Position numbers and translations under genes: made by a program. A DNA stretch of 64,000 bases from Minisyncoccota bacterium (GTDB taxonomy: Bacteria > Patescibacteriota > Minisyncoccia > Phycocordibacterales > JAGLPS01), in assembly GCA_023137185.1 (NCBI GenBank), contig JAGLPS010000006.1:683-64682 (forward strand), given 5' to 3'. The notes under the pieces were generated by a model that was not told where the DNA came from, did no database searches, and was given only the letters and a program-made list of their open reading frames with translations. Shown here piece after piece: positions 4,132 through 27,890 of this stretch; the first letter of the stretch is position 1, and every line of letters begins with the position of its first letter.

Positions 4132-4312
4132 TAATAAAGTTTAACCTCGTCCTATCCCAGCAGCACTTCGGCAAGCTCTCAGTGCAAACCACCTCGGCAG
4201 GATATATAGGCGAGGCATCAGGTAAACTTTGTTGTATATGTGTCGGCTCCGCCGACACATATCACTTTTGCGGATTCATCCTCGAGGCTCTGCCTCGGGG
4301 ATGAATCCGCAA
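4132..4312. repeat. Structured element A: one copy of an inverted ~180-nt conserved element (partner 12800-13092)
   Basis: Reverse complement aligns with 12800-13092 with ~75-80% identity. The outer 27 nt (taataaagtttaRcctcgtcctatYcc) are near identical. Nested hairpins gcggattcatcc..ggatgaatccgc and gtgtcggc-tcc-gccgacac. Contains ACCTGAT, CCTAtATAtCCT and GGGATgaaTCCGC motifs reminiscent of M-box/TPP/cobalamin riboswitch 3' halves. Confidence 0.5.
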
Positions 4313-4496
4313 TCACAATAAATAATTTTACTCCTTGTTAGCAATAAGAACAATCATTTTTCTGTGGAAAACTCATAAAAAAATCAGTTGTGCGTCATTT
4401 TTTAAAGCGCGTCCAGAATGTGGAAAAAAATAGCTTGATATAGTTTGATATTCTGAAAAAAAATTTTGCGACACTTAGAGTTTTGAATAAAATACC

Positions 4497-4523
4497 CCGC
4501 TAGCAGCTAGCGGGGGCATTTTA
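4497..4523. other. Perfect 10-bp palindromic hairpin ccccgctagc-a-gctagcgggg
   Basis: seen directly; flanked by A/T runs, between element A and the promoter-like repeat. Confidence 0.4.
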
Positions 4524-4544
4524 GAGTTCACGTGGAAGTAACCA

Positions 4545-4576
4545 CTTGGAAGCTCGGCTTCCAAGTGTGGTGTAAT
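4545..4576 (+). repeat. P1 repeat family copy 1: palindrome cttggaagctcggcttccaag followed by gtggtgtaat (possible -10-like element), upstream of the 4678 gene
   Basis: 8 loci in the window share the 8+3+8 palindrome ttggaagc-tcg-gcttccaa and the adjacent gtggtgtaat motif. Confidence 0.6.
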
Positions 4577-4677
4577 GTGCATACTATCCGCATCATTTGG
4601 CTTTTTGTAATGTTGTGATAAGGTTTGACTTATACAAGCAGTTCTTTGAAGTTAACAAATCAAAAAGGAGGTGAGAG

Positions 4678-5442
4678 ATGGAGAAAAAAAGGTTAAAAAT
4701 TTTTATTTCCTGCGCTTTAGGAGCAGGAATAGGAACAATCGTAGCATTGGGAGTTGACCAATATTTTTGCTGGATAGGATTTTTCGTGGGAGGGCTTGTA
4801 GGTTATTTATCCTATGAGTTCAATACTGTTATTGAAGCAAGCCAAAAAACTTGGCGTAAAGTAACTGAATGGAAACCGGACAAAGAATTATGGAGATTAA
4901 AATTTGAGCTTGCGTGGTGGCAATTTTGCATGATAATAACATTCGCCACATTAACAATGCTAATCTCTTTTATCGTTTTTTGTTTGGTTACACCTTTGGA
5001 GATGATAAAACTTTTTCTACTCACTATGATTATTTGGGGAATGATAATTTTAATGTTTACTGTTTTTATTATCATTCCAAACCTATTTGTAGAAAGCAAA
5101 AAATCTTATACTATTGATGAAATTAATAACATTAAAAAGCTTAATCCTTTTAACGTCTATTGTTGCTGTTTGCCTAAAAGATTTTGGTGGTACTTGAAAA
5201 AAACACCGACTGCCGCAATATGGATATGGTATTGTCGTATCGCCGCGGCAAAATTCGTCAAAACGGTTTTTGTTTTGATCCATTCTGACATCCGTTTACT
5301 GTGCGGAACTGACGCGGCAATTGGAGCCGTAATAGGATATTTCACAGGCAATGTTATTATAGGAATACTTGCCGGCGGAATAATCGGAGTTGTAAATTAC
5401 GAACTCATCTCCAAGCGTTTTTTACGTCTCGAGCGTACATAA
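4678..5442 (+). CDS. Multi-pass integral membrane protein, function unknown
   Basis: 254 aa, ~7 hydrophobic segments; strong SD aaaggaggtgagag 6 nt before ATG. Confidence 0.6.
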   Translation: MEKKRLKIFISCALGAGIGTIVALGVDQYFCWIGFFVGGLVGYLSYEFNTVIEASQKTWRKVTEWKPDKELWRLKFELAWWQFCMIITFATLTMLISFIVFCLVTPLEMIKLFLLTMIIWGMIILMFTVFIIIPNLFVESKKSYTIDEINNIKKLNPFNVYCCCLPKRFWWYLKKTPTAAIWIWYCRIAAAKFVKTVFVLIHSDIRLLCGTDAAIGAVIGYFTGNVIIGILAGGIIGVVNYELISKRFLRLERT

Positions 5443-5452
5443 CAAAAAAAAC

Positions 5453-5504
5453 AAAAGCCAGCGATTTATTTAGATAAAAAAATCTAAAGCTCGCTGGCTT
5501 TTTC
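5453..5504 (+). terminator. Intrinsic terminator for the membrane-protein gene
   Basis: Long hairpin agccagcga...tcgctggct followed by ttttt, 10 nt after the stop. Confidence 0.55.
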
Positions 5505-5507
5505 TTT

Positions 5508-5568
5508 AACTTGGAAGCTCTAACTTGGAAGCTCGGCTTCCAAGTGGGAGCCTTAAAACGTGGTGTAA
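5508..5568 (+). repeat. P1 repeat family copy 2 (tandem half-unit plus full unit, ...ccttaaaacgtggtgtaat)
   Basis: aacttggaagctctaacttggaagctcggcttccaag...gtggtgtaat. Confidence 0.6.
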
Positions 5569-5605
5569 TTTGTAATTTATAAAATTACTATTTTTTAATT
5601 ATATA

Positions 5606-5637
5606 CAAAAAAAAGACCCGTATAAATAACGGGTCTT
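5606..5637 (-). terminator. Minus-strand intrinsic terminator (gacccgt-ataaata-acgggtc + U8), 3' of pyrE and of the GC-rich structured region
   Basis: Stem-loop followed by 8 T on the minus strand. Confidence 0.45.
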
Positions 5638-5639
5638 CA

Positions 5640-5960
5640 AGATAATTAAGGAGCTAGCCATCCTATTTTTTTCATAAAAGAGCTGATTTCACAAGACGAC
5701 ATAAAACAGGCCACTCCGTCCATCCCTCGCCCCGTGCCCAAATTATTAAGGGCAAAAGGGCGAGGTATTGGCGGAGCGGCACCATGGCTGTTTTTTTGGA
5801 AGAAGAAGCAGCCTCCGCCGCTCCAAATCCATTTGTCTCTCATCCCGGCAGCAGAGCTGCGGGGATGAGAGACACCCAATAAAAAGAGGTGCCAATCCAC
5901 AGCGCGCGCACAACTCGCGCACATCCTCTTTTTTTCTTTTACCTTCAATGAGCTCAAGGA
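5640..5960. ncRNA. Candidate structured RNA (GC-rich, multi-hairpin) between pyrE stop and the terminator; class not recognisable by eye
   Basis: Locally GC-rich in an AT-rich genome. Nested long stems (tctctcatccc..gggatgagaga, ggagcggc..gccgctcc, cctcgccc..gggcgagg). Only low-complexity Cys-rich ORFs overlap it. Confidence 0.25.
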
Positions 5961-6010
5961 AGTCGCCCGCTTTTACATAACCGAAACATCGGTTTATTTC
6001 TGTACCACAC

Positions 6011-6658
6011 TTATAGCATTTTCTCACTTTTTTCTCCTCTCTGAGCAAGGTACTCGCGGCCATGACCAACTTCCGTGTTTATTGGAATACCTTTTTTGCA
6101 CATCGGGCACTCAAATTCAAGCCATACTTCCAAATTCATATTCACAAGAGAGAAAAGTGTGGGTACGTCAGCTAGCTTTTTCGCGGTAACTCCTCCGCGG
6201 TTGCACAGTGCGCCAACTCCAATAACTTCGCCTCCGGCAAAACGAGTCGCCACGACAACTTTCCGTGCTGATTCTCCCGTGGTTAGCACATCCTCGAGCA
6301 CAAGCACTCTGCTTCCTTCAACAAACCTGTCATAGCCTCTTTTAATGACAAAAAAATTATTTTCTTTTTCTGCATACACCGCAGAAACTTTCTTACCTGT
6401 AAAAGTAGTCAGGTAATATGCAACCCACTGTGAGAGAATTACGCCGCCAATAGCTGGAGCAATAACTGTCTTTACTTTCTCGTCTTGAAATTTTCTTGCA
6501 AGAATTCGGCACAATGTGGATATTCTTATGGTATCCGCATACAACATATCCTTGTTTATATATGAAGCGCTGTGTTTACCTCCTTTGCAAACAATGTGAC
6601 TGTCCGTGATAATTGCTCCAACCTGCCTGAGTATCTCCAGTATCTGATCTGCGTTCAT
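6011..6658 (-). CDS. pyrE: Orotate phosphoribosyltransferase-like type I PRTase with C-terminal CxxC tail
   Basis: 215 aa; PRPP-binding motif VLVLEDVLTTGES; C-terminal ECPMCKKG. Confidence 0.65.
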   Translation of the reverse strand: MNADQILEILRQVGAIITDSHIVCKGGKHSASYINKDMLYADTIRISTLCRILARKFQDEKVKTVIAPAIGGVILSQWVAYYLTTFTGKKVSAVYAEKENNFFVIKRGYDRFVEGSRVLVLEDVLTTGESARKVVVATRFAGGEVIGVGALCNRGGVTAKKLADVPTLFSLVNMNLEVWLEFECPMCKKGIPINTEVGHGREYLAQRGEKSEKML

Positions 6659-6772
6659 TTCAAATCTCCTTTCTGTCTAAAATATGTGTAAGGATTCAAA
6701 TTTTGAAGAACTTATTTGGTGGACAGTTTACCTGAAAGAGTAAATTTTAGCAAGATTTTTTGCAGTAATTAA

Positions 6773-7777
6773 CTAATCAAAAATAGAAACTAGATACTCG
6801 TCTATTTCCCGTTGTTCCAAATCATAAAAATGCTTCCCTGTACTGTGAATGTCTGTCGCTAACTTCACACCGACAAATCTCCAATGCCACGGCTCAAATA
6901 TGTAGTAGCTGTTGTTGTCAGGGTACGAAAGAATAAATCCGTAACGGTGAGCATTTTGAAGAAGCCATTGATAGGCAGACGTCTCATCAAAGCCATCAAG
7001 TGTACCTCCAATACCCGTGGTAATAATATCCACTGCTGTCCCAAGTTGATGTTCCGAATACCCTTGGTCTGCGGAAAACTGGTTCGCAGTCCCCTCCCCA
7101 TAGGTAACGGCATACTGCTCCTTGAGCGCCTCTTGTTCATCAAAAGAGCGGTATGCTGAAAAGATATAAAGCTCAACGCCGCTTTGTTTTGCCTGATTGA
7201 GCATTGTTTGCAAATATGGCCACACTTGAGAATGAATTTTGGAGTGTTTATTTTCGTAGTACTCGTATTCGTCGGGAATCTCTGTAAGGCGCTCTGGCGC
7301 GTAGTGCTCATTGAGAAAAAACACTTTTGAATATTTTTGCAAAAACTCGGGGTCAGTCTTGCTTAATTTTTCCAAAGTCGTTACTGTTCCAGAAATCGCC
7401 CCGACTTCCTGCTCAAAACTTCCGAGCTGTTGCTGTAACGCTCCGACATTCTGTTTCTCTTTATTAAGTTCGCTAGAAAGGGAACTGTGCGTTTCCGCGA
7501 TATTTCCTTTAAGAAGTTCGGTAGTTGACGCAAGTTTTGTCTCAAGAAAAGCAATTTGTCCAGAAAGCGAAGAAATCTGCTCGGAAAAAGCAGTGATATA
7601 TTTATGTCCGTACCAAAAACCAAAACCGACTAGCAAAACAACTAGCGTAAAGGCTCCTGCCACTACCCAATAGTGAGGCGGAACATCTTTTATTGGATGC
7701 CTCTCTGGGGTATGGGTAGACGAAGTGGCCTGTTTTATTGATTTCTCCTCCTTTGTCATCATATGAGTTTTGTTCAC
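6773..7777 (-). CDS. Membrane-anchored D-alanyl-D-alanine carboxypeptidase (peptidase M15B, VanY-like) with coiled-coil region
   Basis: 334 aa; N-terminal TM, SAYRS..Q...SEHQLGTAVDI zinc-peptidase M15 motifs. Confidence 0.75.
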   Translation of the reverse strand: MNKTHMMTKEEKSIKQATSSTHTPERHPIKDVPPHYWVVAGAFTLVVLLVGFGFWYGHKYITAFSEQISSLSGQIAFLETKLASTTELLKGNIAETHSSLSSELNKEKQNVGALQQQLGSFEQEVGAISGTVTTLEKLSKTDPEFLQKYSKVFFLNEHYAPERLTEIPDEYEYYENKHSKIHSQVWPYLQTMLNQAKQSGVELYIFSAYRSFDEQEALKEQYAVTYGEGTANQFSADQGYSEHQLGTAVDIITTGIGGTLDGFDETSAYQWLLQNAHRYGFILSYPDNNSYYIFEPWHWRFVGVKLATDIHSTGKHFYDLEQREIDEYLVSIFD

Positions 7778-7902
7778 TATATAAGAGTATTATACCCCTA
7801 ACTAGAGTTAAGTGAAAAAAGTTAAATCTGACTTTGAGAAACACCAACAGATATTGGAATCGCCCTCACCTCTTAACTATGCTAATTTGATAGAATATAT
7901 AT

Positions 7903-8994
7903 ATGCGCGCCGTATTAATATCTTTTTTATCTCTTGTTCTAATGTGCCCTATTTCGGCGCAAGGATTTTACCAAGATACTCAGATAGTATGGCGGGCTGA
8001 AGTAGTAAAGGTCACCGATATAAAGACGATCATCGTACCGGGCACAAATGTCAAAAATCCCGTACAAACATTAACGGCAAAGCTGCTCAACGGGGAACAA
8101 GAGGGGGAAACTGTCATCTTTGAAAATGATTACATTCAACTTGAAAAAGGAGACAAATTTTATCTCAACTACTCAACTACTATCAATGGCCAAGAATTAT
8201 ATTCGGTTCGTGAAGTGGACAGGCGTGGCTCAATAGCGCTCATTGCGGCTATCTTTGTGGCAACAATTCTACTATTTGGAGGTATGCAAGGGTTTCGATC
8301 ATTGCTTTCGCTTGCGGGAAGTCTCTTGGTAATTGTGTATGTGCTAGTGCCAACGTTGGTTAAAGGATACGCCCCTATTCCGATAAGTATCGCTGTCGCG
8401 TCAGCTGTTCTGTTCTGCGCCATTTTTTTTACTCACGGTTTTAATCGCAGGTCAGCTGTTGCGTTTCTCGGAACAATTATCGCCGTTGGAATCACAGGAC
8501 TGCTGGCATACGTTTCAATAGACTCAACAGGGTTGACCGGCTTTGCAAGCGATGAGAGCGTGTATCTAAATTTGAATACTGGCGGGCAATTGGATTTCGT
8601 AGGACTCTTACTCGCGGGAATTATCATCGGCGCTCTTGGAGTTCTGGATGACATCGCAATTACACAAGTCGCAGTTGTGCGCGAACTTTTTGAAGCCGGC
8701 AAACACTTCACAAAATGGGACGTATATAAAAAAGCAATCCGTGTCGGAAGGGAGCACGTAGGAGCGCTTGTAAACACGCTCGTGCTTGCTTACACAGGAG
8801 CGGCGCTTCCCCTTCTTCTCTTATTCTCGCTTTCAGATAGTGGAACACTATCAATTATAAATAGAGAGATATTCGCAACTGAAATTGTCCGCTCACTTGT
8901 CGGAAGCATCGGCCTTGTGCTTGCGGTACCGATTACCACACTGCTTGCCGTATTCTTATTACACAACCATTCTCACAAAGAAATGGGTTCTTAG
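7903..8994 (+). CDS. YibE/F-family integral membrane protein
   Basis: 363 aa; signal/TM N-terminus, soluble domain then ~8 TM with GVLDDIAITQ motif typical of YibE/F. Confidence 0.6.
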   Translation: MRAVLISFLSLVLMCPISAQGFYQDTQIVWRAEVVKVTDIKTIIVPGTNVKNPVQTLTAKLLNGEQEGETVIFENDYIQLEKGDKFYLNYSTTINGQELYSVREVDRRGSIALIAAIFVATILLFGGMQGFRSLLSLAGSLLVIVYVLVPTLVKGYAPIPISIAVASAVLFCAIFFTHGFNRRSAVAFLGTIIAVGITGLLAYVSIDSTGLTGFASDESVYLNLNTGGQLDFVGLLLAGIIIGALGVLDDIAITQVAVVRELFEAGKHFTKWDVYKKAIRVGREHVGALVNTLVLAYTGAALPLLLLFSLSDSGTLSIINREIFATEIVRSLVGSIGLVLAVPITTLLAVFLLHNHSHKEMGS

Positions 8995-9099
8995 AAATGC
9001 CTTCATTCATACGCGCGCTGCTAACTTTCACTTTATAGCAAGTAATCGAAACGCGCAGACTATTGTAGTTAGATGTTAAATTAAGAGCAAGGCTTGCTC

Positions 9100-9543
9100 T
9101 TAAAGCCCTAAAATTTGAATCTGAATTTTTCTTTTTCTCAACTGGTCCAACTCAACAAGTAAAACTCTCTGCCATTGACCCAATTGAAGCATTCCCTCAA
9201 TCAAATTCAAAGTGGTGTTCACTAATAAACGAATTGCCTTGCAATGCGAATGGCCGTTAACACATTCCCCCTCGCAAACATTGACTGTCCGTTTGGTAAA
9301 ATCATCGTGCCGATAATTCGCGGTTTTAGAAGCAACCGCCTCCAAATTATCTTTAATATCCTCAATAAGCAGAGGTTCGTTTTCATTTACAATAAGAGCA
9401 GCCGAAGTGTGCAAAATCTGAATATTTATAAGTCCATTTTTAATTTGGCTTTCTTTAACAAAAGTTTTTATTTTGTCGGTTATATCAATAAAATCAAACA
9501 GACCTTTAGTTTGAAATTCGATTGTTTTGTTTAAAATTTTCAT
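9100..9543 (-). CDS. YjbQ/UPF0047 family (secondary thiamine-phosphate synthase-like) protein
   Basis: 147 aa; ...HTSAALIVNENEP...YRHD...NGHSHCKA...LGQWQRVLLVELD conserved YjbQ pattern. Confidence 0.75.
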   Translation of the reverse strand: MKILNKTIEFQTKGLFDFIDITDKIKTFVKESQIKNGLINIQILHTSAALIVNENEPLLIEDIKDNLEAVASKTANYRHDDFTKRTVNVCEGECVNGHSHCKAIRLLVNTTLNLIEGMLQLGQWQRVLLVELDQLRKRKIQIQILGL

Positions 9544-9658
9544 AATTCAAATTCAGATTAGTTGTATTTTTTAAATAATAACACAATTTTTATGAATAGC
9601 GTTATTCAAACAACAAAATACTACGCGAAAACAGGCGCGGAGACAGATGGCACTTGTA

Positions 9659-9693
9659 AAAAAGACCCTCCTAAGGCGGAGGGTCTTTGTTTG
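9659..9693 (-). terminator. Intrinsic terminator (gaccctcc-taaggc-ggagggtc + U-run)
   Basis: hairpin + T-run just 3' of the WG-repeat gene. Confidence 0.5.
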
Positions 9694-9701
9694 ATTATAC
9701 A

Positions 9702-10028
9702 TTAAACACGTGATCCATCGGGGCGGATGTTAAACCATTCATCGTTTTTCTCAACTACTGCCAAACCATTGGAGAAGCAGCCGACAATCCCATATCGCTC
9801 TACATAAGCCGGTCTGCCATCTGGATGAATGTGGAAGCATTCACCATTCTTTTCGACCCACGCCAAGCCTCTAGTGAAATGGCCGACATCGTTATATCGT
9901 TCTTCGTAAGCCTGTTTGCCATCTGGATGAACGTGGAACCATTTGCCATTTTTCCTAACCCGCGCGAGACCTTCAAAGAAATGGTCAACGTAGTCATACA
10001 TTTTCAGTAGTTCTTTTTTGATTTTCAT
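9702..10028 (-). CDS. WG-repeat protein
   Basis: 108 aa; three ~30-aa repeats (KNGKWFHVHPDGKQAYEERY / KNGECFHIHPDGRPAYVERY / KNDEWFNIRPDG). Confidence 0.6.
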   Translation of the reverse strand: MKIKKELLKMYDYVDHFFEGLARVRKNGKWFHVHPDGKQAYEERYNDVGHFTRGLAWVEKNGECFHIHPDGRPAYVERYGIVGCFSNGLAVVEKNDEWFNIRPDGSRV

Positions 10029-10125
10029 TTAAAATCTTTCCTTTCGTTAGTTCCTGCCTATTTATGTAAACGAACTGTGATTCCTTTTAGGTAGTAACAT
10101 AAAAATAACAAAAAGCCAAATGGGT

Positions 10126-10185
10126 TTGGAAGCCGTAAACTTGGAAGCTCGGCTTCCAAATGAAAGTTCCAAAATGTGGTGTAAT
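10126..10185 (+). repeat. P1 repeat family copy 3
   Basis: ggaagccgtaaacttggaagctcggcttccaa...aaaatgtggtgtaat. Confidence 0.6.
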
Positions 10186-10210
10186 TTTTTCTGTACACAA
10201 ACCCATACAC

Positions 10211-10245
10211 AAAACACCCCCGCCAACTGTTGGCGGGGGTGTTTC
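10211..10245 (-). terminator. Intrinsic terminator of csp
   Basis: acacccccgcc-aactgtt-ggcgggggtgt followed by U-run in minus orientation. Confidence 0.55.
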
Positions 10246-10256
10246 TGCATTGCGAT

Positions 10257-10457
10257 TTACGCTTTGCTGACCTTGACTGCGTTCGGTCCCTTTGGACTGT
10301 CTGCAACTTCGAAAGTCACTTTGTCACCTTCGCGAAGTTCGTTGAACGTAACGTCAACGAGCTCATTTGAGTGGAAAAAGAGATCTTTTTCCTGTCCTTC
10401 GCATTTGATGAACCCGAAACCCTTATCGGTGAGTCGAGCAATTGTTCCTTCTGACAT
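10257..10457 (-). CDS. csp: Cold-shock protein (CspA family)
   Basis: 66 aa; KGFGFI, FFHSNEL, GDKVTFEV motifs; long AT-rich 5' leader typical of csp. Confidence 0.9.
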   Translation of the reverse strand: MSEGTIARLTDKGFGFIKCEGQEKDLFFHSNELVDVTFNELREGDKVTFEVADSPKGPNAVKVSKA

Positions 10458-10626
10458 TGTTGATATGTATGAAGAGCGAATAAAAAATCAAACAGTATGC
10501 CGAAGGTCGAGACTCGATCTTTTCTCTACTGGATCAGCACTGAATTGACAAAAGAGATCATATCATATCTCAATTAATTGTCAACGTTTTTTGTACACTA
10601 TCATAGGGTTAGTGACATTTCAGCCC

Positions 10627-12027
10627 TCAAAAAAATTTAGCCCCTATTACCATCACAGCAAAGTATATGAAAAAAATTGAAATCAAAACCATAGCCAGAT
10701 TAGTAAACCAGCTAGGCCTCAAGGCTTTCGGCAACTTCGTATTGTTTATATAAATAAGAAATGGAGTATAAATTGCCATAGTCATACCTCCAAGCACAGC
10801 CGAGATAACAAGCCACGTCAAAGGCTGTTTAGCTGGCAATAAAATAGCGCCAATGGCCACAATCAATATTATAGCGGTATAGTAAATTTTGCTAAGAGAA
10901 ATACCTTTGAACCATTTAAGTTTAGAAGCAAGTGGTCCTACACGCGAATTGGTGTAGAGAATATCCGAAATCATACGGGTCAAAGCATCTATGACAGTCC
11001 ACATAACAGAAAAGAGCATAAGCGAGGCCATAACCAAAAATAATTTATAGCCAAACACGCCCCATTGCTGGCCAAAAATATTAGCCTGCGCCACCGCCAC
11101 ATCCCAACCCTCTGGCACAATACCCAAAGGGGTCAAAACAGCGTGAGCATTCACGCTTAGCAAAAACAAAGTTATAAAACCAAGCAACAGGAAAATAAGC
11201 CCTTGGTCAATCCGTATATATTTCATCCAACCGCGCCATCTTTTAAGATTTTCTTCCGTCATTTCAAAAGTAAATCCTGTGGCAGCGACAGATTCTTCAC
11301 GACCTGTGATGGGATTAACCACGCGGCCAATATATTCACCCATACCGACCTGCTTGTCGCGGTACCACAAAGAAGTGCATAGATTCAACATACCGCCAGC
11401 TCCGGCAAAAACCACAGCTCCCAACAAAACATTTATATCCACACCTTCTGGAATAAAACCGAAACTAAATACCCCTTTAACACCTTCGGCTAGCTGCGCC
11501 CAACTTAAATTGAAAAAGCTAATAACAACGAGTAACGCGAAAAAAGTCGGCACAATTACCTTAAGCGTTTTTTCCAGTATGTTGTAGGCTATCTTGCCGG
11601 AAAAAGTCAATAACAAAACCAGTCCCAATACTGTCCAAGACCAGCCGAGATGCGTCCCGAAACCAAATAATTCAGCTAAAGCGGCGCCTATCGCGCTAGC
11701 CCAACCCGGCCAGATATAAAGAAGTAAAGCGGCAAAAAACCAAAAAACAGGCGACCATTTTATTACCCGCGCGCTTGTGGTAAAAAACCCCTCTCCCGTA
11801 GCGGCGGAATGCCTGGCGACTTCTTGATTGATAAAATACTGGGCGCTAATACCAAGCAAAGCCAGCCAAAGAAGCCCTAATCCGTGTTTAGCAATAAGAT
11901 GCGGCCACAAAATAAGCTCGCCGGTTCCGATAGCTAAACCCATAACCACTACCCCCACTCCCAAAGCCTTAGACCAATGTGGCGGCTTAGGCAAATCTCG
12001 AGTTTCAAGAGGTGGAAATTTATCCAT
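10627..12027 (-). CDS. Nramp-like (MntH-related) divalent metal transporter, ~11 TM
   Basis: 466 aa; polytopic; N-terminal GLAIGTGELILWPH..GLLWLALLG..QYFINQEVARHSAATGEG resembles Nramp family TM1-3. Confidence 0.45.
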   Translation of the reverse strand: MDKFPPLETRDLPKPPHWSKALGVGVVVMGLAIGTGELILWPHLIAKHGLGLLWLALLGISAQYFINQEVARHSAATGEGFFTTSARVIKWSPVFWFFAALLLYIWPGWASAIGAALAELFGFGTHLGWSWTVLGLVLLLTFSGKIAYNILEKTLKVIVPTFFALLVVISFFNLSWAQLAEGVKGVFSFGFIPEGVDINVLLGAVVFAGAGGMLNLCTSLWYRDKQVGMGEYIGRVVNPITGREESVAATGFTFEMTEENLKRWRGWMKYIRIDQGLIFLLLGFITLFLLSVNAHAVLTPLGIVPEGWDVAVAQANIFGQQWGVFGYKLFLVMASLMLFSVMWTVIDALTRMISDILYTNSRVGPLASKLKWFKGISLSKIYYTAIILIVAIGAILLPAKQPLTWLVISAVLGGMTMAIYTPFLIYINNTKLPKALRPSWFTNLAMVLISIFFIYFAVMVIGAKFF

Positions 12028-12057
12028 AATTCAATACAGTTATTTATACCAAGAAAA

Positions 12058-12579
12058 TTACTCCGGAAAAACACCCAAAGCGTCATTAAAACGGTTAATG
12101 TAATTGAAAAGTCCAATGACCGCGGTAAGCTCAACAAGTTCTTCGTCGTTAAAATACTTCTTTACATTTTCAATAACTTTCGGGTCTATCTCATACGCTT
12201 TTTTAGTTACAGCCCTCGCAAATTCCAGTGCCGCGTGTTCTCGCTCATCTGCTTTCTCAACTATTTTTGAAACATCTTCATCAGTAAGCCCGAACTGGCG
12301 AAGTTGTATATGTGTAACATCAAGGCAGAATTCGCATTTATTGAGACGCGACACCTCATCAGCCACTTTCCACTTAAGAATCGCCGGAAGCGGCGCATCA
12401 TCCATTGTCGCTTTAAACAGTGTAAAGAAACCAACAAGAATATCCTCGCAATTTGCCATTACTTTCATCCATTTAGGCACCTTTTTACCCGCCGATGTAA
12501 ATTGTTCGTAAAACTCCCTTGTCTCATCTTTTACTTCTTCAGCAGTAACTAAATGAACAATAGGTTTTGAGTCTGCCAT
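12058..12579 (-). CDS. Carboxymuconolactone decarboxylase (AhpD-like) family protein
   Basis: 173 aa; CMD-domain-like C-terminus; 30-nt gap to the downstream transporter suggests an operon. Confidence 0.5.
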   Translation of the reverse strand: MADSKPIVHLVTAEEVKDETREFYEQFTSAGKKVPKWMKVMANCEDILVGFFTLFKATMDDAPLPAILKWKVADEVSRLNKCEFCLDVTHIQLRQFGLTDEDVSKIVEKADEREHAALEFARAVTKKAYEIDPKVIENVKKYFNDEELVELTAVIGLFNYINRFNDALGVFPE

Positions 12580-12670
12580 AATTTTAATACGAATTAATCG
12601 TTTAACTTATTACTTCGCGACACATCTCTATTCTAACAAAAAAAGTCTGAACAAATAACCTATCTGCCGA

Positions 12671-12700
12671 GCCCCTGCGGGGCTCGGCAGACGGTTTACA
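12671..12700. repeat. GC hairpin tctgccgagcccc-tgc-ggggctcggcaga (copy 1; identical copy at 14108-14137)
   Basis: 13-bp perfect stem, two identical copies flanking element B plus the two permease-half genes. Confidence 0.6.
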
Positions 12701-12799
12701 ACATATATTTTGGTATCGACTTATAGTTTCTATCGCGAGGGACTACATTTATTGTAATTGTGGAGAATGCCCCGTCGGCTTGCCCTTAATAATCCGGGC

Positions 12800-13092
12800 A
12801 GGCAGCGGGGATGAATCCGCAAGTATAAAGAAGCGTCGGCGGAGCCGACACCTCTACAACAAAGTTTGCCCCGATGCCTCGCCTAATACCTCGCCGAGGT
12901 ACTCCGAGGGAACAGCTTGCCCCCACACCTGTTTTCCCGTGGTATTTTGTCACCTAAGCCGATGTATTCATAGTATCGGAAAGCACCAGCCATACTTTTT
13001 ACAATTACATTATCCTTGAAAATACTGTGACAACGGGAAAACAGGTGTGGGGGTTTGTTGCGGGAATAGGACGAGGCTAAACTTTATTAAGG
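12800..13092. repeat. Structured element B: inverted partner of element A, carrying an extra ~125-nt insertion with a 20-bp stem
   Basis: Plus strand here is approximately the reverse complement of 4132-4312. Shared blocks ggggatgaatccgcaa, gtcggcggagccgac, caacaaagttt, gatgcctcgcct, cctcgccgagg, gggaataggacgagg. Insertion cccccacacctgttttcccg...cgggaaaacaggtgtggggg. The terminal 27 nt overlap the stop of the 13077 gene. Confidence 0.5.
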
Positions 13093-13583
13093 AATTTATC
13101 AACTATTACTCCATTAATAACCGAAAATACTATTATGTATAGAGTGAGAACAAGCGTAAAAGATAAACCAAAATAATAAATCATTAAAGGTAAAAGAGGG
13201 ACTTTAATGGCGCGGCTGTACAAAAATGCGACAATGAATGAGTTTTTCATTCCCTTCTCTCTTAGATTACTCAATAGCGGGTACCATATGTATATTGGTC
13301 CCGAAGACATAATACCTCCAATAATCGAGGCTGCCCATCCTTTTATTCCCACATCTTTACCAACATATTTTACGATTTTTTTGGTATCAAGAAAGATATT
13401 TGATAAAAAAATGAGAGTAAATCCAAGTAAAAGGATTGGCAAAACTTGCAGACATAAAGCAAGAGAGGCTTCAAGCGCCCGTTTGGCTATTGAAACATCT
13501 ATTATTGACGTAACCGCGTATAAAACAGCAACAATTATAAGAAAAAAGTATCTTCCATTAATATTTCGCGGTGTTATTTTCAT
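13077..13583 (-). CDS. Putative permease half (DUF318/COG0701-like), C-terminal half
   Basis: 168 aa, 5 hydrophobic segments, GGIMSSGPIYIWYPLL motif; abuts the upstream half. Confidence 0.4.
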   Translation of the reverse strand: MKITPRNINGRYFFLIIVAVLYAVTSIIDVSIAKRALEASLALCLQVLPILLLGFTLIFLSNIFLDTKKIVKYVGKDVGIKGWAASIIGGIMSSGPIYIWYPLLSNLREKGMKNSFIVAFLYSRAIKVPLLPLMIYYFGLSFTLVLTLYIIVFSVINGVIVDKFLNKV

Positions 13584-14023
13584 TATATGAACGCAAGCGT
13601 AAGAGTGATAAATATAGCGACCATTAAAGCGGACACGAAACTGACAATATTTCTTGCAATGGCGAATTTTTTCCCGAGTATCAGTAATTCAGCGGGAAGT
13701 TGGATAACACCTACTGTAACCCACGTGAGAATAAAAGCGGTTACCGCCGTAAGACTTACACCTTGTTGCAAAAGCTCTCCGCCAATAATATAGCTTGTTA
13801 TAGGACTCCCGCCAGAAATACTCCCGAAGAGCGCTCCCGCCAGTGAATCTAAAATAGTATTACCTGAAAAAACGCGATAAAAAATGTCCTTAGACAGTAC
13901 CGCTTGTAACCAACTAACAAGAAAAAGTGTCCCAATGAGAATAGGAATTACCTGAATAAACGAACCTAATGTTTTTAAAAACGCTTTTTTATAAGAATGA
14001 GAAAAAAGCATACATTTAATCAT
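13583..14023 (-). CDS. Putative permease half (DUF318/COG0701-like), N-terminal half
   Basis: 146 aa, 4 TM, GSISGGSPITSYIIGGELL motif; stop/start overlap with the next gene. Confidence 0.4.
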   Translation of the reverse strand: MIKCMLFSHSYKKAFLKTLGSFIQVIPILIGTLFLVSWLQAVLSKDIFYRVFSGNTILDSLAGALFGSISGGSPITSYIIGGELLQQGVSLTAVTAFILTWVTVGVIQLPAELLILGKKFAIARNIVSFVSALMVAIFITLTLAFI

Positions 14024-14107: not shown

Positions 14108-14137
14108 GTCTGCCGAGCCCCTGCGGGGCTCGGCAGA
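14108..14137. repeat. GC hairpin tctgccgagcccc-tgc-ggggctcggcaga (copy 2)
   Basis: identical to 12671-12700. Confidence 0.6.
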
Positions 14138-14175
14138 CAATTCACAACACACAAAGGCCTCGCCTTTGTATTCTT

Positions 14176-15562: not shown

Positions 15563-15570
15563 AAACTTAA

Positions 15571-15665
15571 TTCTACACCACTTCCCCGCCTACGCGCACA
15601 CAAGTCTAAATTTTAGGGAATTAAGACAAATTATCGAGAAATTATCGAGGTTCAACCTCGATAAA
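15571..15665 (-). promoter_or_regulatory. Duplicated ~95-nt upstream region (copy 1) with -10-like gtggtgTAGAAT directly before a leaderless ATG, plus palindrome ttatcgag-N4-ttatcgaggttcaacctcgataa
   Basis: Near-identical to 16939-17045, which precedes the NYN gene. Palindromic core atcgaggtt-c-aacctcgat is also present at 47.8 kb and 54.6 kb. Confidence 0.5.
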
Positions 15666-16931: not shown

Positions 16932-16938
16932 AATGCTA

Positions 16939-17045
16939 TTCTACACCACTTCCCCGCCTACGCGCGCACAAGTCTAAATTTTAGGGAATTAAGGCAAATT
17001 ATCGAGAAATTATCGAGGTTCAACCTCGATAATTTCTCGATAAAC
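16939..17045 (-). promoter_or_regulatory. Duplicated upstream region (copy 2) containing a perfect 45-nt palindrome ttatcgagaaattatcgaggtt-c-aacctcgataatttctcgataa (16999-17043) and the leaderless promoter of the NYN gene
   Basis: direct sequence comparison with 15571-15665. Confidence 0.5.
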
Positions 17046-17050
17046 ACAAA

Positions 17051-17089
17051 CACCAAACACCTCAAATACACCATTTGAGGTGTTTGGTG
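17051..17089 (-). terminator. 17-bp perfect hairpin caccaaacacctcaaat-acacc-atttgaggtgtttggtg, terminator of the 17107 gene
   Basis: followed by U-rich tract in minus orientation. Confidence 0.55.
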
Positions 17090-17106
17090 CAAAAGTGGTA
17101 ATTCTG

Positions 17107-17682
17107 CTAGATTTTGGTGTAAAAAACCGATTTCCCGGTGTTCCCGACCTGTTTTATGCGATTTTCTGCTTCAAGAATATCTAAATATCTTACCGCTGTG
17201 GCGCTTGATATTCTAAGTAGTTTTTGAATATCTTTGTTTGTTATTTGAGGCTTTGTCTCAAAAAGAGCTACAACCTTATCTAATTTTTTCCGTCTTCGTT
17301 CTTGAATTTTTGCCCGCGCTTTCACAAGTAATCTTTGAACAATATTCGGATCGGTTTTGTAGATAATTTGTGTTTGAACTTGAGATTGCTGTGGTTGTGG
17401 CTCTGATATTGGCATAGGTTCTTCTGAAACAGAAGAATGTGTGGGAGCAGGTTCTGACACAGTTTGTTCAACCACTTCTTCATCCGCAAGGACTGCTGTT
17501 TCTTGTGGTTGTTCTATTGGTGCTGTGGTTTGAACTTCAGAAATGGTCTCTGGTTGAATTTTCTCAGTTGCTTCTTCAATAGGGTCTGCCGACGGCTCAA
17601 CAATAGGTTCAGTAGCCACAGGTTCTACTGGTACAGTAGTTTCTTCTACTATGTCTTGAGTTTTATTTTCTTCTGGTGGCAT
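17107..17682 (-). CDS. Protein with disordered acidic Pro/Glu-rich N-terminus and C-terminal winged HTH
   Basis: 191 aa; C-terminal KDIQKLLRISSATAVRYLDILEAENRIKQVG is HTH-like; 11 nt after the hsdS stop. Confidence 0.45.
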   Translation of the reverse strand: MPPEENKTQDIVEETTVPVEPVATEPIVEPSADPIEEATEKIQPETISEVQTTAPIEQPQETAVLADEEVVEQTVSEPAPTHSSVSEEPMPISEPQPQQSQVQTQIIYKTDPNIVQRLLVKARAKIQERRRKKLDKVVALFETKPQITNKDIQKLLRISSATAVRYLDILEAENRIKQVGNTGKSVFYTKI

Positions 17683-17693
17683 ATTGTCTTGAA

Positions 17694-19136
17694 CTACAAT
17701 TTTAATTGATTATTTGATGAATTACGATTGTTTTTTTCAATCTCCTCCTCAACTCTCCTTTTCGCTTCTTCTAAAAGCTCTTTGCTTTCTTTTCTCAATT
17801 TATGGCTTTCCTGTATTTTTTCTGCAATCTGTTTTTGAATTTTTGGGTTGATAAGAGGAATTTTAAATTTTTCAAAATCTGATGGTTTTAGATGGGCGAT
17901 TATTGCTCCGCCTGATAATTTTTCAACTTGCGTTTTAGAAATAATGGAATTGAAAATCAGAGACAGGCATTCTTTTTCAAAAGTTTGATATTTGTCTTTT
18001 AGGCTCAATCTTAAAAACGCTCCGCTCAAAATTAGATCAAATTCTTCTTTGACGACATAACTTAAACCGATTGTTCCATCTTTGGTAAATAAAATATCGT
18101 CCCGTTTAGGCTGATAATCATTTTTTAATTCCTGATAAAGCCCTTTTGAAATTTTCTTGCCTGTGTCTTTAACTCCGTTTATTGAAAAATCCGAAACTCT
18201 CCCAAATGACATTCCGTCCTGCTGATATGTTTCGCTCCCAACCTCAACGCCTTTTTTCCAATTCACTATATTTTTAACAAAATTCCAGCCGTTTTTATAA
18301 TTTTCAATCTTTTTAATTATCTCATCATATTTCGGCTGAAAATATTCCGCGTCAAATCTCCCCGCCTCGTCTGTTTCTTTTTTTGTAGTTTGAAATGATA
18401 AAATATGCTCTAGCTTGTAATCCCCTCCTTTGCCAAGGCTTCGGCGGGCAGGCAACAAATCAACCTCTTTCAAAAGCGTTTCTTCGGCTTGTTTGTAAAG
18501 TTGTTTTGATTGGGTTTGTTTTTCGTAAGCGAACTTTACGATTTTTTCTATTTGGAGTTGGAAAGATTGAGGAAGGATTGGGATTTTTAAATCAGTAAAA
18601 TTAAAAACGTTTAATTTGGGTTGTGCGTTACCGCTTATTCTTCTTAATATTTGATTTTGACCATACTTTGAATTTAAAAAAGTTAAAATAAAATATTTTA
18701 TTTCTTCATTGTAATTCTCTAGTTTTATACCGATATTATTTTCAGAGACATTTGCTCTTTTCATTTCATTATCTATTCTTGCAATCAAGCCAATTGTATT
18801 TCCAACTTTTGAGACAACTAAATCGCCTTGTTTTAATTCAGAATTTTTAATCTTATTATTACTATCCTCAGAAATACAAACCATATTTTCTTTTTCTAAA
18901 AAAAATCTTTGTCTTATGTCTTGAACTCTTACAAAATAAACACCTTCATTAAGATATTCTTCACTTTTTAAAGTTGACCCAAAGGGACCTGATACAACCT
19001 CATTTTTTGATAAATAAAAATGTTTTAAATTGTCCAATTTCTCTTCAATCTCCAAATATTCCAGTTTAAAAAACTCCGCGTCAAACCTGCGCGCTTCTTG
19101 AACATCTGATTTTTTGATAATTGAGATTTGTGGCAT
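17694..19136 (-). CDS. hsdS: Type I restriction-modification specificity subunit
   Basis: 480 aa; two target-recognition domains separated by conserved coiled-coil repeats; N-terminus MPQISIIKKSDVQEARRFDAEFF. Confidence 0.85.
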   Translation of the reverse strand: MPQISIIKKSDVQEARRFDAEFFKLEYLEIEEKLDNLKHFYLSKNEVVSGPFGSTLKSEEYLNEGVYFVRVQDIRQRFFLEKENMVCISEDSNNKIKNSELKQGDLVVSKVGNTIGLIARIDNEMKRANVSENNIGIKLENYNEEIKYFILTFLNSKYGQNQILRRISGNAQPKLNVFNFTDLKIPILPQSFQLQIEKIVKFAYEKQTQSKQLYKQAEETLLKEVDLLPARRSLGKGGDYKLEHILSFQTTKKETDEAGRFDAEYFQPKYDEIIKKIENYKNGWNFVKNIVNWKKGVEVGSETYQQDGMSFGRVSDFSINGVKDTGKKISKGLYQELKNDYQPKRDDILFTKDGTIGLSYVVKEEFDLILSGAFLRLSLKDKYQTFEKECLSLIFNSIISKTQVEKLSGGAIIAHLKPSDFEKFKIPLINPKIQKQIAEKIQESHKLRKESKELLEEAKRRVEEEIEKNNRNSSNNQLKL

Positions 19137-19142
19137 ATTATT

Positions 19143-20948: not shown

Positions 20949-20970
20949 GAGTGATTAAATTAAAATTAAA

Positions 20971-21096
20971 TTATCTCCAAAACCCCAACCCATTCTCCCT
21001 CCCCCACTTCTCAAAAGCAAAAGCGATCTCGTCTAAGTCGTCAAACTTGCGCGCTTCTTGAACATCTGATTTTTTTATAATTGAAATTTGAGGCAT
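20971..21096 (-). other. Junction repeat 2 with chimeric 41-aa mini-ORF MPQISIIKKSDVQEARKFDDLDEIAFAFEKWGRENGLGFWR (hsdS N-terminus fused to hsdM C-terminus)
   Basis: Start 2 nt after the stop of the upstream cassette gene. Its stop lies 22 nt before the OLD ATG, reproducing the native hsdM-stop/hsdS-start spacing. Confidence 0.6.
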
Positions 21097-21098
21097 AG

Positions 21099-22025: not shown

Positions 22026-22528
22026 AATCCTAGTTGCTGGTAAACTGTATCTTTGTAATGATAAGCTCCTGTTTTATCATTATTTCTAAAAGAAGAATCT
22101 GAATCAAACCAATCATCAATAGCATGTTCAATTATCTTTTGTTTAAAATTCACATGAACAGCTAATTCGTCTTTTAGTATTGTTGGACATAAATCAGAAT
22201 CCATACTTGTTTTCCCATTTAAATTTACTACAATAATCGGAATATTTCTTTTTATTGCCTGCTCAATTTCCCAACGAACAAATTTATAAAGATGTTTCGT
22301 ATTATCTCCCACAAGAAGAATAAAAACTTTCGTGTTTCTTAATCGTTCAGCAAGTTTTGCCTTAATAGTTTCTTCTGTAGAATCTGACATAAGATTATTT
22401 AAATCATGAGCATCATAAAAATTAAATGAAGTATTATCACTTTTTTTCCAAGCTTGCATTAAACGATAATAATGAATGTCATTATCTGCATCAAAAGCAA
22501 CATATGTTTTGTTTGTATAAATTGTCAT
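22022..22528 (-). CDS. TIR-like domain protein (DUF1863/ThsB-like)
   Basis: 168 aa; YVAFDADNDIHYY N-terminal strand and KVFILLVGDNTKH..WEIEQAIKRNIPIIVV pattern of bacterial TIR-like (ThsB) domains. Confidence 0.6.
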   Translation of the reverse strand: MTIYTNKTYVAFDADNDIHYYRLMQAWKKSDNTSFNFYDAHDLNNLMSDSTEETIKAKLAERLRNTKVFILLVGDNTKHLYKFVRWEIEQAIKRNIPIIVVNLNGKTSMDSDLCPTILKDELAVHVNFKQKIIEHAIDDWFDSDSSFRNNDKTGAYHYKDTVYQQLGL

Positions 22529-22567
22529 AAAAATATTTTAGATTAATAAATTAATTTTTCCAAAAAT

Positions 22568-22879: not shown

Positions 22880-22907
22880 ATTATTTTAAATTAAAAAATT
22901 AATAAAT

Positions 22908-23039: not shown

Positions 23040-23040
23040 T

Positions 23041-24380: not shown

Positions 24381-24404
24381 ATTAATTTATTTATTTTCAA
24401 AAAA

Positions 24405-25070: not shown

Positions 25071-25091
25071 ATTTTTATTCTTAAATTTATA

Positions 25092-27889: not shown

Positions 27890-27890
27890 A

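Follow-up and report, generated by a model that had tools for sequence, protein, structure and literature searches.

The window, i.e. the entire 64-kb stretch of DNA that was analysed, contains at least five copies of a short structured repeat, designated A, B, C, D and mini-copy E. Only A and B, which are mutually inverted and 8.4 kb apart, were recognized in the original prediction; C, D and E were located using the covariance model R1. Copy A is full length and lies at 4134–4321 on the minus strand (R1 150.8 bits, model positions 1–181; 188 nt including the 5' TTAT at 4318–4321, with the element proper running from 4317 to 4134), and its fold has an MFE z-score of −8.25. Copy B, also full length, occupies 339 nt at 12749–13087 on the plus strand, with TTAT at 12749–12752; R1 aligned only the 5' part of B because of a 134-nt insert, and the 3' end was located by pattern. 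Both predicted elements are real, but their bounds had to be revised: A reaches 4321, and B starts at 12749 rather than 12800, so that the entire first stem-loop had been missed. B was described as the reverse complement of A at ~75–80% identity, which agrees with the 74.9% identity obtained over 179 aligned bases when A(−) is aligned with B(+). The outer ends are nearly identical, as proposed, with 88% complementarity over the outer 34 nt (4132–4165 versus 13056–13089) and exactly two occurrences of the 20-nt pattern ATAGGACGAGGNTAAACTTT against 0.01 expected by chance. Copies C (5701–5882, minus strand; R1 48.7 bits, E 4.5e-12) and D (47601–47764, plus strand; R1 98.6 bits over 47601–47763) are divergent and full length. 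Mini-copy E (37843–37907, minus strand; repeat search, with a weak R1 match of 14.2 bits at about 37823–37907) consists of the 5' end and first hairpin joined to the 3' end and has lost the guide strand described below.

Every copy is complete in itself and bounded by its own pair of ends, 5'-TG(Y)AAYTG…CTTTAT-3'. It is located directly 3' of TTAT and encodes no protein, and its core of ~165–190 nt may be extended by optional hairpin insertions. The conservation limits are sharp in every copy, beginning at TTAT|TG and ending at CTTTAT|. The host site is TTAT^T, often within a terminator T-tract or an AATAA stop-codon context, and because the right end of the element bears the same TTAT as the target, a target duplication is indistinguishable from insertion without duplication. 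The two ends of a unit are not mutual inverted repeats. The unit contains two homologous subterminal hairpins, AAUACCCCG-N-CCGC…GCGG-CGGGGAU, stem-loop I near the left end and P5 near the right end, with stem-loop II between them; stem-loop I and P5 share their sequence and a single bulged base, and the identical nested hairpin insertion is found in either. Most of the variable hairpins are capped by G-CUUG-C loops, and the complementary CAAG is rare.

In copy A, all on the minus strand, stem-loop I (4270–4310; GCGGAUUCAUCCCCGAGGC-AGA-GCCUCGAGGAUGAAUCCGC) has Watson–Crick pairs in place of the usual GA/GAA internal loop, a variant shared by the copies at L016 and L051. The stem-loop II core (4242–4256; GUCGGC-GGA-GCCGAC), previously noted only in B, is present in both A and B and undergoes compensated replacement in C and D, reading GCGAGC-GAA-GCUCGC in D. 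The internal guide, or 'splint', strand UACAACAAAGUUUA (4223–4236) comprises the P0 3' strand and the P3 5' strand; it is followed by the P4/P5 arm (4144–4216; GCCUCGCCUA…UAGGACGAGGU), the distal part of which is variable and which in D forms a perfect 21-bp hairpin, and by the 3' end UAAACUUUAU (4134–4143), comprising the P3 3' strand and the terminal AU. Copy B has additional hairpins in the loops of stem-loop I and P5, and its guide strand UACAACAAAGUUUG (12855–12868, plus strand) was identified with the help of the inverted-repeat pair AACAAAGTTT / AAACTTTATT. The inserted, stem-closed arm that had been predicted in B was recovered in the distal P5 loop (12920–13053, plus strand) as a 24-bp stem whose 24-nt arms are 96% complementary and enclose 86 nt; it has no second occurrence elsewhere in the window. 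The 3' end of B (13077–13087, plus strand) coincides with the end of a convergent permease ORF on the opposite strand (13077–13583), the last three codons and TAG stop of which come from the B end; the element thus restores a stop to this ORF.

Beyond the window, about 45 further copies were recovered, from Patescibacteria genomes as well as from contigs of metagenomes. Patescibacteria genome assemblies yielded eight stretches, five of them in a single Taylorbacteria assembly, and 40 of the 41 metagenome stretches carry a copy; the viral contigs searched contained no true copy. Copies at 13 loci are interrupted by the sequence end; in the 11 cases checked, this coincides, or appears to coincide, with the end of the contig. 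Within one genome, three unlinked copies are 96.7–98.4% identical, and the elements at L008 and L017 share 85% DNA identity whereas their flanking orthologous proteins share only 40–68%. There is no synteny between genomes and no recurrent neighbouring gene family among the carrier loci, the largest cluster comprising three loci. Orientation relative to neighbouring genes is random in 32 copies (14 versus 12 upstream, 10 versus 17 downstream), and for several copies the end falls within a convergent gene or on its stop codon. Rearranged and decayed forms occur as well: a mini-copy in tandem with a full copy at L012, a truncated copy (L049) and chimeras (L029, L031 and L044). In both the L012 mini-copy and mini-copy E, the entire region separating the two homologous hairpins is deleted. 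The repeat has no match among the Rfam families, nor was it found described in the literature searched.

This distribution bears on the two functions originally proposed for A and B. The first was a riboswitch-like cis-regulator, serving as the leader of the nrdJ-pduO operon or, on the other strand, of transporter genes, with blocks resembling M-box, TPP and cobalamin riboswitches. Copy A indeed shares its strand with nrdJ, from which it is 208 nt upstream, and its RNA is well structured. The likeness to known riboswitches was not borne out: cmscan against Rfam 15 gave no relevant match at the gathering score across the whole window and nothing relevant at E ≤ 10 around A and B, only chance matches to hairpin families. 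Moreover, B, C and D lead no gene on the folded strand, the 32 copies have no preferred orientation, no neighbouring gene family recurs among the carrier loci, several copies end inside or at the stop of convergent genes, and the copy number is far above that of a riboswitch. The cis-regulator reading is thus already contradicted, and we regard it as very improbable. B was also considered as a leader and rejected, since on the folded strand it is convergent with the permease gene. For its part, nrdJ has its own promoter-like site (TTGTCA…TATAAT) between A and the ATG. The copies in the window would be intergenic passengers and do not regulate nrdJ or the transporter genes. The second proposal treated A and B as imperfect terminal inverted repeats bounding a composite transposon of 9 kb, which would account for their inverted arrangement 8.4 kb apart. 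However, C lies within that segment and D and E are 25–35 kb away, the ten ORFs scanned inside it (4678–12579) include no transposase, and the unit, complete in each copy and lacking inverted ends, occurs singly at dozens of unrelated loci. This reading is likewise contradicted and has a negligible probability.

The same dispersal of single units favours a different form of mobility, which the original prediction had allowed for in general terms. Our best explanation, held with roughly even confidence, is that A and B belong to a new family of mobile elements dispersed in Patescibacteria, which are short, non-autonomous and protein-less and act as a folded single strand. Besides copy number and distribution, its support comes from the near-identity of unlinked copies, the random orientation and varied neighbours, the rearranged forms, the sharp ends, the stop codon restored by B, and the fold and splint described below. 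No empty sites were found, and movement is therefore something that we infer.

The fold itself was evaluated by a covariation test on alignment A4 (35 copies, 45 pairs). Across the 45 pairs, 97.8% of cells are paired, and 21 of the 45 pairs have changes on both sides, a number reached by 0 of 500 shuffles; sliding the partners by 1–3 columns reduced pairing to only 33–48%. Compensatory changes are present in all six helices, and RNAalifold recovered the same helices from an independent MAFFT alignment. Together with the lack of an Rfam match, this supports the predicted conserved structured element outside the known riboswitches. G·U pairs outnumber A·C pairs 41 to 9, identifying the folded strand as that of A(−)/B(+). 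The divergent copies C and D retain near-perfect pairing, with compensatory changes preserving every helix in C.

These features could also reflect a multicopy family of structured small RNA genes, in which the copies are transcribed and the RNA is the functional product. This is a serious rival to the mobile element, although we consider it a rather unlikely one. The RNA might conceivably belong to a ribonucleoprotein or regulate in trans, and domain 2, with its A-tract, long GC-rich arm and CUUUAUU, could possibly serve as the terminator; the 3' arm together with the UUUAUU behind it looks like an intrinsic one. The covariation of all six helices, the strand-specific G·U bias, the near-perfect helices of C and D, the G-CUUG-C caps with few complementary CAAG, and a conservation of element DNA far above that of flanking proteins are all in line with a functional RNA. 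On the other hand, conservation stops exactly at TTAT, leaving no conserved promoter, and about a third of the copies have a terminator hairpin immediately at their 5' end, where a promoter could not fit; for A and B, no promoter-like site was called ahead of the element on the appropriate strand. The absence of synteny and the mini-copies, truncated copies and chimeras also argue against such a gene family, and a linear RNA gives no obvious role to a guide complementary to the joined ends. For the mobile element, the pairing of C and D, which would be expected if each copy were selected as a functional RNA, would require separate, recently active subfamilies. Six helices, including a stem-loop II that covaries in C and D, are also far beyond the needs of IS200/IS605 ends.

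The guide is an internal 14-nt strand, URCAAC-AAAGUUUN, complementary to both termini. When the element ends are joined, about 30 of the 35 copies have 13 of 14 positions paired with the guide. Covariation is seen at three positions, and the mismatch always involves the A of TTTAT (A·A in copy C). Through this splint-like pairing, the last and first bases of the element come to lie next to each other on one continuous helix, in which one conserved A, two bases away from the cut, stays unpaired. In the L005/L007 subfamily, which has itself multiplied, a pair of insertions complementary to each other creates a 25-bp helix with the guide strand in its apical loop.

For the mobile element, these properties suggest a mechanism in which the folded strand of A(−)/B(+) would be the acting form and an enzyme encoded elsewhere in the genome would recognize the two hairpins, cutting and rejoining at TTAT| sites aligned by the guide. 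The excised circle would have the junction AAACTTTAT|TGYAAYTG, a perfect partner of the guide, and would be reinserted after another TTAT. The closest precedent for the enzyme would be a single-strand HUH/Y1-type transposase as in the IS200/IS605 'peel and paste' pathway, the alternative being a recombinase. Such an enzyme is purely hypothetical, because tblastn with an approximate IS200 TnpA sequence as query gave no match across 390 kb of carrier DNA and the window ORFs scanned included no transposase, recombinase or reverse transcriptase.

Alternatively, the guide could operate at the RNA level, with the element acting through splint-directed self-circularization or cutting and ligation, or as a guide RNA, which we consider improbable. 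The transcript might be circularized or cut and ligated, in a ribozyme-like or ligase-dependent manner, and copied back into DNA; or it might direct a recombinase, encoded at another locus, to the ends of the element itself, similar to bridge or seek RNAs. Either variant would make use of the complementarity to the joined ends, the unpaired A beside the junction and the display of the guide in the multiplied L005/L007 variant. Against both, no Rfam ribozyme, intron or known guide RNA family matches, no reverse transcriptase or IS110-type gene adjoins any copy, and a promoter was not found. Bridge RNA bipartite guides pair with opposite strands, whereas the guide of the repeat pairs intramolecularly, and its partners to the left and right of the junction belong to a single strand; the two large internal loops that carry such bipartite guides are also missing. 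RNA complementary to element ends serves recognition in bridge and seek RNAs (PMC11208160). A further precedent is ssr9 of ISPpu9 (IS110 family), a structured small RNA gene with stand-alone copies that spreads as a selfish module by means of a transposase supplied in trans and circular intermediates (PMC12288879). The repeat is similar to these systems in being structured, present as stand-alone copies and complementary to its own ends, and differs in that its copies have no IS110-type gene nearby.

By analogy, the mobile element most resembles palindrome-associated transposable elements (PATEs), protein-less IS200/IS605 derivatives that transpose in single-stranded DNA form by 'peel and paste'. 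Both are short, multicopy, and free of ORFs and terminal inverted repeats; both have two similar imperfect hairpins on the same strand, one close to the left end and one close to the right, and an extrahelical base in each hairpin; and both lie immediately 3' of a specific tetranucleotide, which for the repeat is TTAT. Recognition of the cut site by pairing with an internal sequence is also shared, as proposed for the repeat. IS200/IS605-type elements use two 4-nt guides at the hairpin feet, whereas in the repeat one 14-nt strand pairs with the two ends simultaneously. It also has four additional covarying helices, a right end repeating the target TTAT and no Y1 transposase found, and its copies in both orientations sit within one stretch of uniformly negative GC skew, a misfit with the strict insertion strand bias of IS200/IS605. 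For IS608, pairing between guide and cleavage site and a critical linker length have been described (PMC3597680). The left linker, which separates the cut from the foot of the hairpin, measures 17 nt in the repeat; its counterpart in IS608 has 19 nt.

Two further groups are less similar. Correia/NEMIS, ERIC, BOX, RUP and REPIN sequences are likewise dispersed, intergenic, foldable, about 100–200 nt long, often located at gene ends or terminators, and able to break assemblies. They are essentially long imperfect palindromes or terminal inverted repeat pairs, in contrast to the multi-branched fold, non-palindromic ends and six covarying helices described here. Integron attC and CTX-phage attP sites share with the repeat the folding of one specific strand into a recombination substrate (as proposed here), extrahelical or mismatched bases at defined places and a tolerance of variable terminal structures. 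Compared with attC, the repeat has no cassette ORFs or integron integrase context and uses many insertion sites, and the polarity of its paired boxes is opposite, with GTTTG on the 5' side and CAAAC on the 3' side.

A (positions 4134-4321, minus strand) aligns over its full length with B (plus strand) at 74.9% identity across 179 shared positions, and the window contains precisely two occurrences of the 20-nt block ATAGGACGAGGNTAAACTTT, compared with 0.01 expected by chance. The original prediction that A and B are related, inverted copies of one structured element therefore stands, while the start of B lies at 12749, 51 nt ahead of the predicted one. Within B, an additional hairpin with 24-nt arms that are 96% complementary occupies 12920-13053, and a smaller extension is found in the first stem-loop. 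A covariance model built on 22 copies of the element, R1, also matches D (47601-47763; 98.6 bits), C (5701-5882; 48.7 bits, E = 4.5e-12) and, weakly, the mini-copy E (~37823-37907; 14.2 bits); the 7.7 kb by which the contig extends past the window start yielded no additional copy. Because C lies between A and B, and D and E lie 25-35 kb away, A and B do not constitute a pair. The suggestion that they form the ends of a 9-kb composite transposon is contradicted by the five window copies, C being located inside the segment, and by the ten ORFs scanned between 4678 and 12579, in which no transposase domain was detected.

A and B had also been proposed to act as a riboswitch or cis-regulatory leader. 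The strands of the downstream ORFs are mixed, no neighbour family recurs, and B, read on its folded strand, runs towards the 3' end of a gene that converges on it, all of which speaks against such a role; C and D, moreover, sit downstream of genes. The nrdJ gene has its own promoter-like sequence, TTGTCA...TATAAT, between A and the start codon, and no promoter-like site was called upstream of A or B on the folded strand. The perceived likeness to M-box, TPP and cobalamin riboswitches received no support from cmscan against Rfam 15, which gave no relevant match: at the gathering score, tRNA was the sole match in the whole window, and at E ≤ 10 the regions around A and B returned only chance matches to hairpin-shaped families. 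We regard the element as a new, structured, non-autonomous repeat; it has no Rfam 15 match, and our literature search found no description of it.

Either strand of A yields a fold much more stable than those of shuffled sequences (z-scores of −8.3 and −8.9), so that stability alone cannot choose the strand. RNAalifold on a plain MAFFT alignment predicted six helices. P0, in which the 5' UUGYA pairs with URCAA, encloses stem-loops I and II; stem-loop I is composed of GCGGA/UCCGC, a small GA/GAA internal loop, AU-CCCCG/CGGGG-AU, one bulged base and a variable tip, and stem-loop II is GUCGGC-GGA-GCCGAC. In P3, AAAGUUUN pairs with NAAACUUU, in P4 GCCUCGCCUA pairs with UAGGACGAGGC, and P5 has the form AUACCCCG.../...CGGGGAU with a variable distal part. 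Covariation among homologous copies, proposed as a check in the original prediction, is present: in an alignment of 35 copies, whose fitting to the model favours pairing, standard pairs fill 97.8% of the cells and 21 of 45 pairs have changed on both sides, compared with 5.4 in shuffles (0 of 500 shuffles reach 21). When the partners were slid by 1-3 columns as a control, pairing fell to 33-48%. The same helices and compensatory changes are seen in unfitted alignments, where P3 varies between G-C, A-U and U-A and P0 between U-A and C-G; divergent copies have G-C at the same P0 position in the fitted alignment. Compensation is most striking in C and D, where every helix is rewritten yet kept.

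Among the non-Watson-Crick cells, 41 are G.U and 9 are A.C, three of the latter coming from the mis-aligned 3' part of B, indicating that the folded strand is the minus strand of A and the plus strand of B. Most variable hairpins are capped by G-CUUG-C and not by the complementary CAAG, which is again strand-specific. As read from the sequences, this strand bias argues for a single-stranded nucleic acid, and by itself would suit RNA and single-stranded DNA equally.

Conservation sets in at TTAT|TG and ends at CTTTAT|; the base that comes next is usually T, and in a few copies A or G. Every copy, the divergent C, D and E among them, has TTAT directly before TG. Alignments of the two ends, TGYAAYTGCGG... 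and ...GGCCAAACTTTAT, show that they are not reverse complements, and the element consequently has no terminal inverted repeats of the MITE type. TTAT(T) is found on both sides, and since the right-hand one belongs to the conserved, base-paired end, a target duplication and a mimic carried by the element look alike.

An internal 14-nt strand, URCAAC-AAAGUUUN, which combines the 3' strand of P0 with the 5' strand of P3 and is here called the guide, is complementary to the last ten and first four bases of the element when these are joined (NAAACUUUAU|UGYA). In ~30 of 35 copies, 13 of the 14 positions are paired. Covariation is seen at three positions, and the sole mismatch always involves the A of UUUAU, which faces C in the main family and A in copy C. 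The folded strand thereby brings the terminal nucleotides of the element, the last and the first, next to each other on a single helix, with the guide serving as a splint. The left-flank TTAT is a competitor for these guide bases. In a subfamily represented by two loci outside the window, L005 and L007, two mutually complementary insertions form a 25-bp helix that shows the guide in its apical loop; its presence at two loci means that this variant has multiplied.

Stem-loop I and P5 share AAUACCCCG-N-CCGC...GCGG-CGGGGAU, the bulged base included. AAUA, the position-by-position complement of UUAU, lies 5' of both hairpins, the left one being UCAU in A, C and two outside copies (L016 and L051). 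A deletion between these two homologous hairpins produced mini-copy E as well as a mini-copy at locus L012, which is in tandem with a full copy and has one TTTATT in common with it. A nested GC-rich hairpin of ~30 nt, GCCTGTCTGCGTG...CGCACAGGCAGGC, occupies the loop of either stem-loop I or P5 at loci L015, L022, L025, L036 and L038, with a variant at L031; its occurrence in either loop suggests an exchange between the two homologous hairpins or an even smaller insertion unit. Rearrangement is also seen among the contigs L029, L031 and L044, whose flanking genes are 100% identical: L029 and L031 have a common left flank, L029 and L044 have the element and the right flank in common, and L031 holds a chimeric, deleted copy. 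At the level of sequence, this pattern indicates either recombination between copies or a chimeric assembly at the repeat.

Beyond the window, the full unit is (T)TTAT|TGYAAYTGCGGAGAATACCCCG-loop-CGGGGATGAATCCGCAA-(12-16 variable nt)-GTCGGCGGAGCCGAC-(5 nt)-YRCAACAAAGTTTNCCCYGATGCCTCGCCTAATACCCCG-variable-CGGGGATAGGACGAGGNNAAACTTTAT|T. When one genome per species was searched with the 3' block, eight stretches emerged, all from Patescibacteria, namely five in Candidatus Taylorbacteria (on three contigs), two in Nomurabacteria and one in an unclassified member. Metagenome contigs scanned with two 5' blocks gave 41 stretches, 40 of which are true copies. Three pattern scans of viral contigs, one of them without a hit, gave 117 matches in all and no true copy; we regard these matches as chance because the covariance model finds no copy among them. 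The element is common to several lineages and occurs about once per 13 kb in the genome from which the window is taken. In the protein comparison made, the window is identical to contig DAOWAV010000003.1 of assembly GCA_030634405.1.

Three unlinked copies in a Taylorbacteria assembly are 96.7-98.4% identical. Between the syntenic loci L008 and L017, the DNA of the element is 85% identical and the orthologous flanking proteins are 40-68% identical, so the element is far better conserved than the proteins beside it; this pair of loci and a second one, L005/L031, are too divergent for an empty-site comparison. Copies cut at contig ends are the usual mark of multicopy repeats in assemblies. Here, 13 loci have a copy cut at the end of the DNA stretch, which is a contig end, real or apparent, in the 11 checked, and the element evidently breaks metagenome assemblies; locus L049 holds a truncated copy.

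The genomic surroundings show little regularity. Of the nearest upstream ORFs, 14 share the strand of the element and 12 are on the opposite one; for the nearest downstream ORFs the counts are 10 and 17. When 594 ORFs from the carrier loci were compared all against all by BLAST, no recurrent neighbour protein emerged, the largest cluster comprising three loci. This cluster, the only neighbour seen more than twice (L005 3407-4090, L033 1021-1767 and L049 114-734), encodes a protein of ~200 aa with a membrane-like N-terminal segment and a C-terminal ...KRWDGKWR..IFD...R.....L...GF..LQ.SVW.YP.. region; judged by eye, the protein recalls a Cas2-like fold and not a transposase. About one-third of the copies are immediately preceded by a strong hairpin with a T-tract leading into TTTATTG, and several terminate within or right at a convergent gene's stop codon; in B, the permease ORF at 13077-13583 takes its final three codons and its stop from the end of the element, indicating that the element can rewrite gene 3' ends. 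Linkage to tRNA genes was considered and dismissed, as merely 3 of ~36 copies adjoin one. These three (L020 1366-1439, L025 1047-1128 and L052 290-363) lie 5-40 nt from the tRNA gene, and two of them are directly downstream on the same strand, so that some could be transcribed by read-through.

The mechanism that we put first is mobilisation of the element in trans as a folded single strand, which we infer to be the most likely by analogy with IS200/IS605 'peel and paste' transposition and its protein-less derivatives, the nearest precedent. In IS200/IS605 elements, similar hairpins at the ends bind the transposase, the cut sites are read by pairing with internal sequence, and the length of the linker is critical (PMC3597680); the left linker of the element is 17 nt. 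With PATE, which is derived from IS200/IS605, the element shares similar imperfect subterminal hairpins at left and right on one strand, the lack of terminal inverted repeats and a position 3' of a fixed tetranucleotide (TTAT). In PATE the guides lie at the 5' feet of the hairpins, whereas four copies have not retained the AAUA of the element and the pairing that can be demonstrated is that of the 14-nt guide. Excision would create a circle junction in which ...AAACTTTAT is joined to TGYAAYTG. We also dismissed the idea that the right end holds a TnpB-type guide RNA (omega-RNA), because this end contains the target's own TTAT and a homing nuclease would be blind to the difference between filled and empty sites.

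Several observations weigh against mobility. A Pfam scan of 40 window ORFs detected no transposase, recombinase or reverse transcriptase, and tblastn of 390 kb of carrier DNA with an approximate IS200 TnpA query, a weak test, gave no match. The fold is much richer than ends of the IS200/IS605 type require, and C and D look selected and not decaying. Orientations are mixed inside one GC-skew domain, with A, C and E on the minus strand and B on the plus strand of a uniformly negative stretch; on one Taylorbacteria contig, all three copies have the same strand. Together, the lack of a transposase match, the rich fold, the mixed orientations and the selected appearance of C and D make a multicopy small RNA, that is, an independent structured RNA gene, a serious rival. 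Its 3' arm followed by UUUAUU could end transcription, but such a gene would have neither a conserved nor a predicted promoter (none was called inside the element or across the hypothetical circle junction, and none fits the sigma-70 consensus by eye), and there is no synteny among the carrier loci.

Mobilisation as a folded strand could, alternatively, give way to a process at the RNA level, in which the transcript would cut and join itself on its own splint or would guide a recombinase acting in trans. The latter possibility recalls the ssr9 module of ISPpu9 (PMC12288879) and bridge RNAs (PMC11208160), and stand-alone ssr9-type modules are known (PMC12288879). In contrast to the bridge or seek RNAs of IS110/IS1111, the element has no recurrent neighbour gene, only small internal loops and one continuous guide strand. 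A self-splicing intron of group I or II does not fit, given that no Rfam intron matches and that the element, only ~170 nt in length, has UG as its first and AU as its last bases. Likewise, the hypervariable purine-rich segment between stem-loops I and II was rejected as a guide to the flanks because the near-identical copies L008, L011 and L012 have unrelated flanks.

In its most far-reaching form, which we consider improbable, the element would be a mobile unit free of protein genes whose folded strand recognises its own ends; the 14-nt guide would splint the termini or the circular junction and also read TTAT, and the transcript would be cut, ligated or circularised, or would guide a recombinase encoded elsewhere to the DNA ends of the element. 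If true, this would be a so far undescribed class of guide-templated mobile element, specific to reduced Patescibacteria genomes. We give a minority chance to the guide-splinted ends being the mark of a new form of mobility. The pairing of the guide with both termini is an unusually explicit, sequence-readable way to align ends, and a new kind of nucleic-acid-guided mobility could follow if a partner enzyme or a self-catalysed reaction were found. Patescibacteria have very small genomes and are thought to be poor in repetitive and selfish DNA. The element is open to misreading as a riboswitch, and a covariance model of it would help to annotate these genomes.

The window contains further repeats. 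A second, unrelated family is built from a hairpin, ACTTGGAAGCTCGGCTTCCAAGT, often doubled and then followed by a conserved tail, ...GTGGTGTAAT. At least nine copies are present, intergenic and in both orientations, including 4527-4576, 5506-5584, 10126-10200, 37729-37800, 41774-41922, 46803-46868, 52920-52996 and 53651-53718, and several lie 50-200 nt from A, C and E. Two GC-rich hairpins, TCTGCCGAGCCCCTGCGGGGCTCGGCAGA, 93% identical (12663-12703 and 14109-14149), flank an ArsP-type permease that is split into two overlapping reading frames, 13077-13583 and 13583-14023. A 95-nt direct repeat, 98% identical, follows a zeta-toxin gene (15570-15664) and a gene with an NYN domain (16938-17032), and its terminal palindrome, ATTATCGAGGTTCAACCTCGATAAT, recurs directly after copy D (47774-47798) and at 54564-54588. 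The region from 17000 to 31000 is a low-GC island (GC 0.26-0.38) with internal repeats of 60-210 nt and is rich in defence-type genes, among them type I restriction specificity and methylase subunits, an AAA_15/AbiEii-like ATPase, a ThsA Macro-domain protein, DUF4145 and AAA_14/DUF4143. Finally, three paralogous small ORFs of 132-172 aa (46947-47490, 53046-53618 and 53859-54420), one of them just upstream of D, are made of internal repeats of 126-143 nt that are mutually 60-85% identical.
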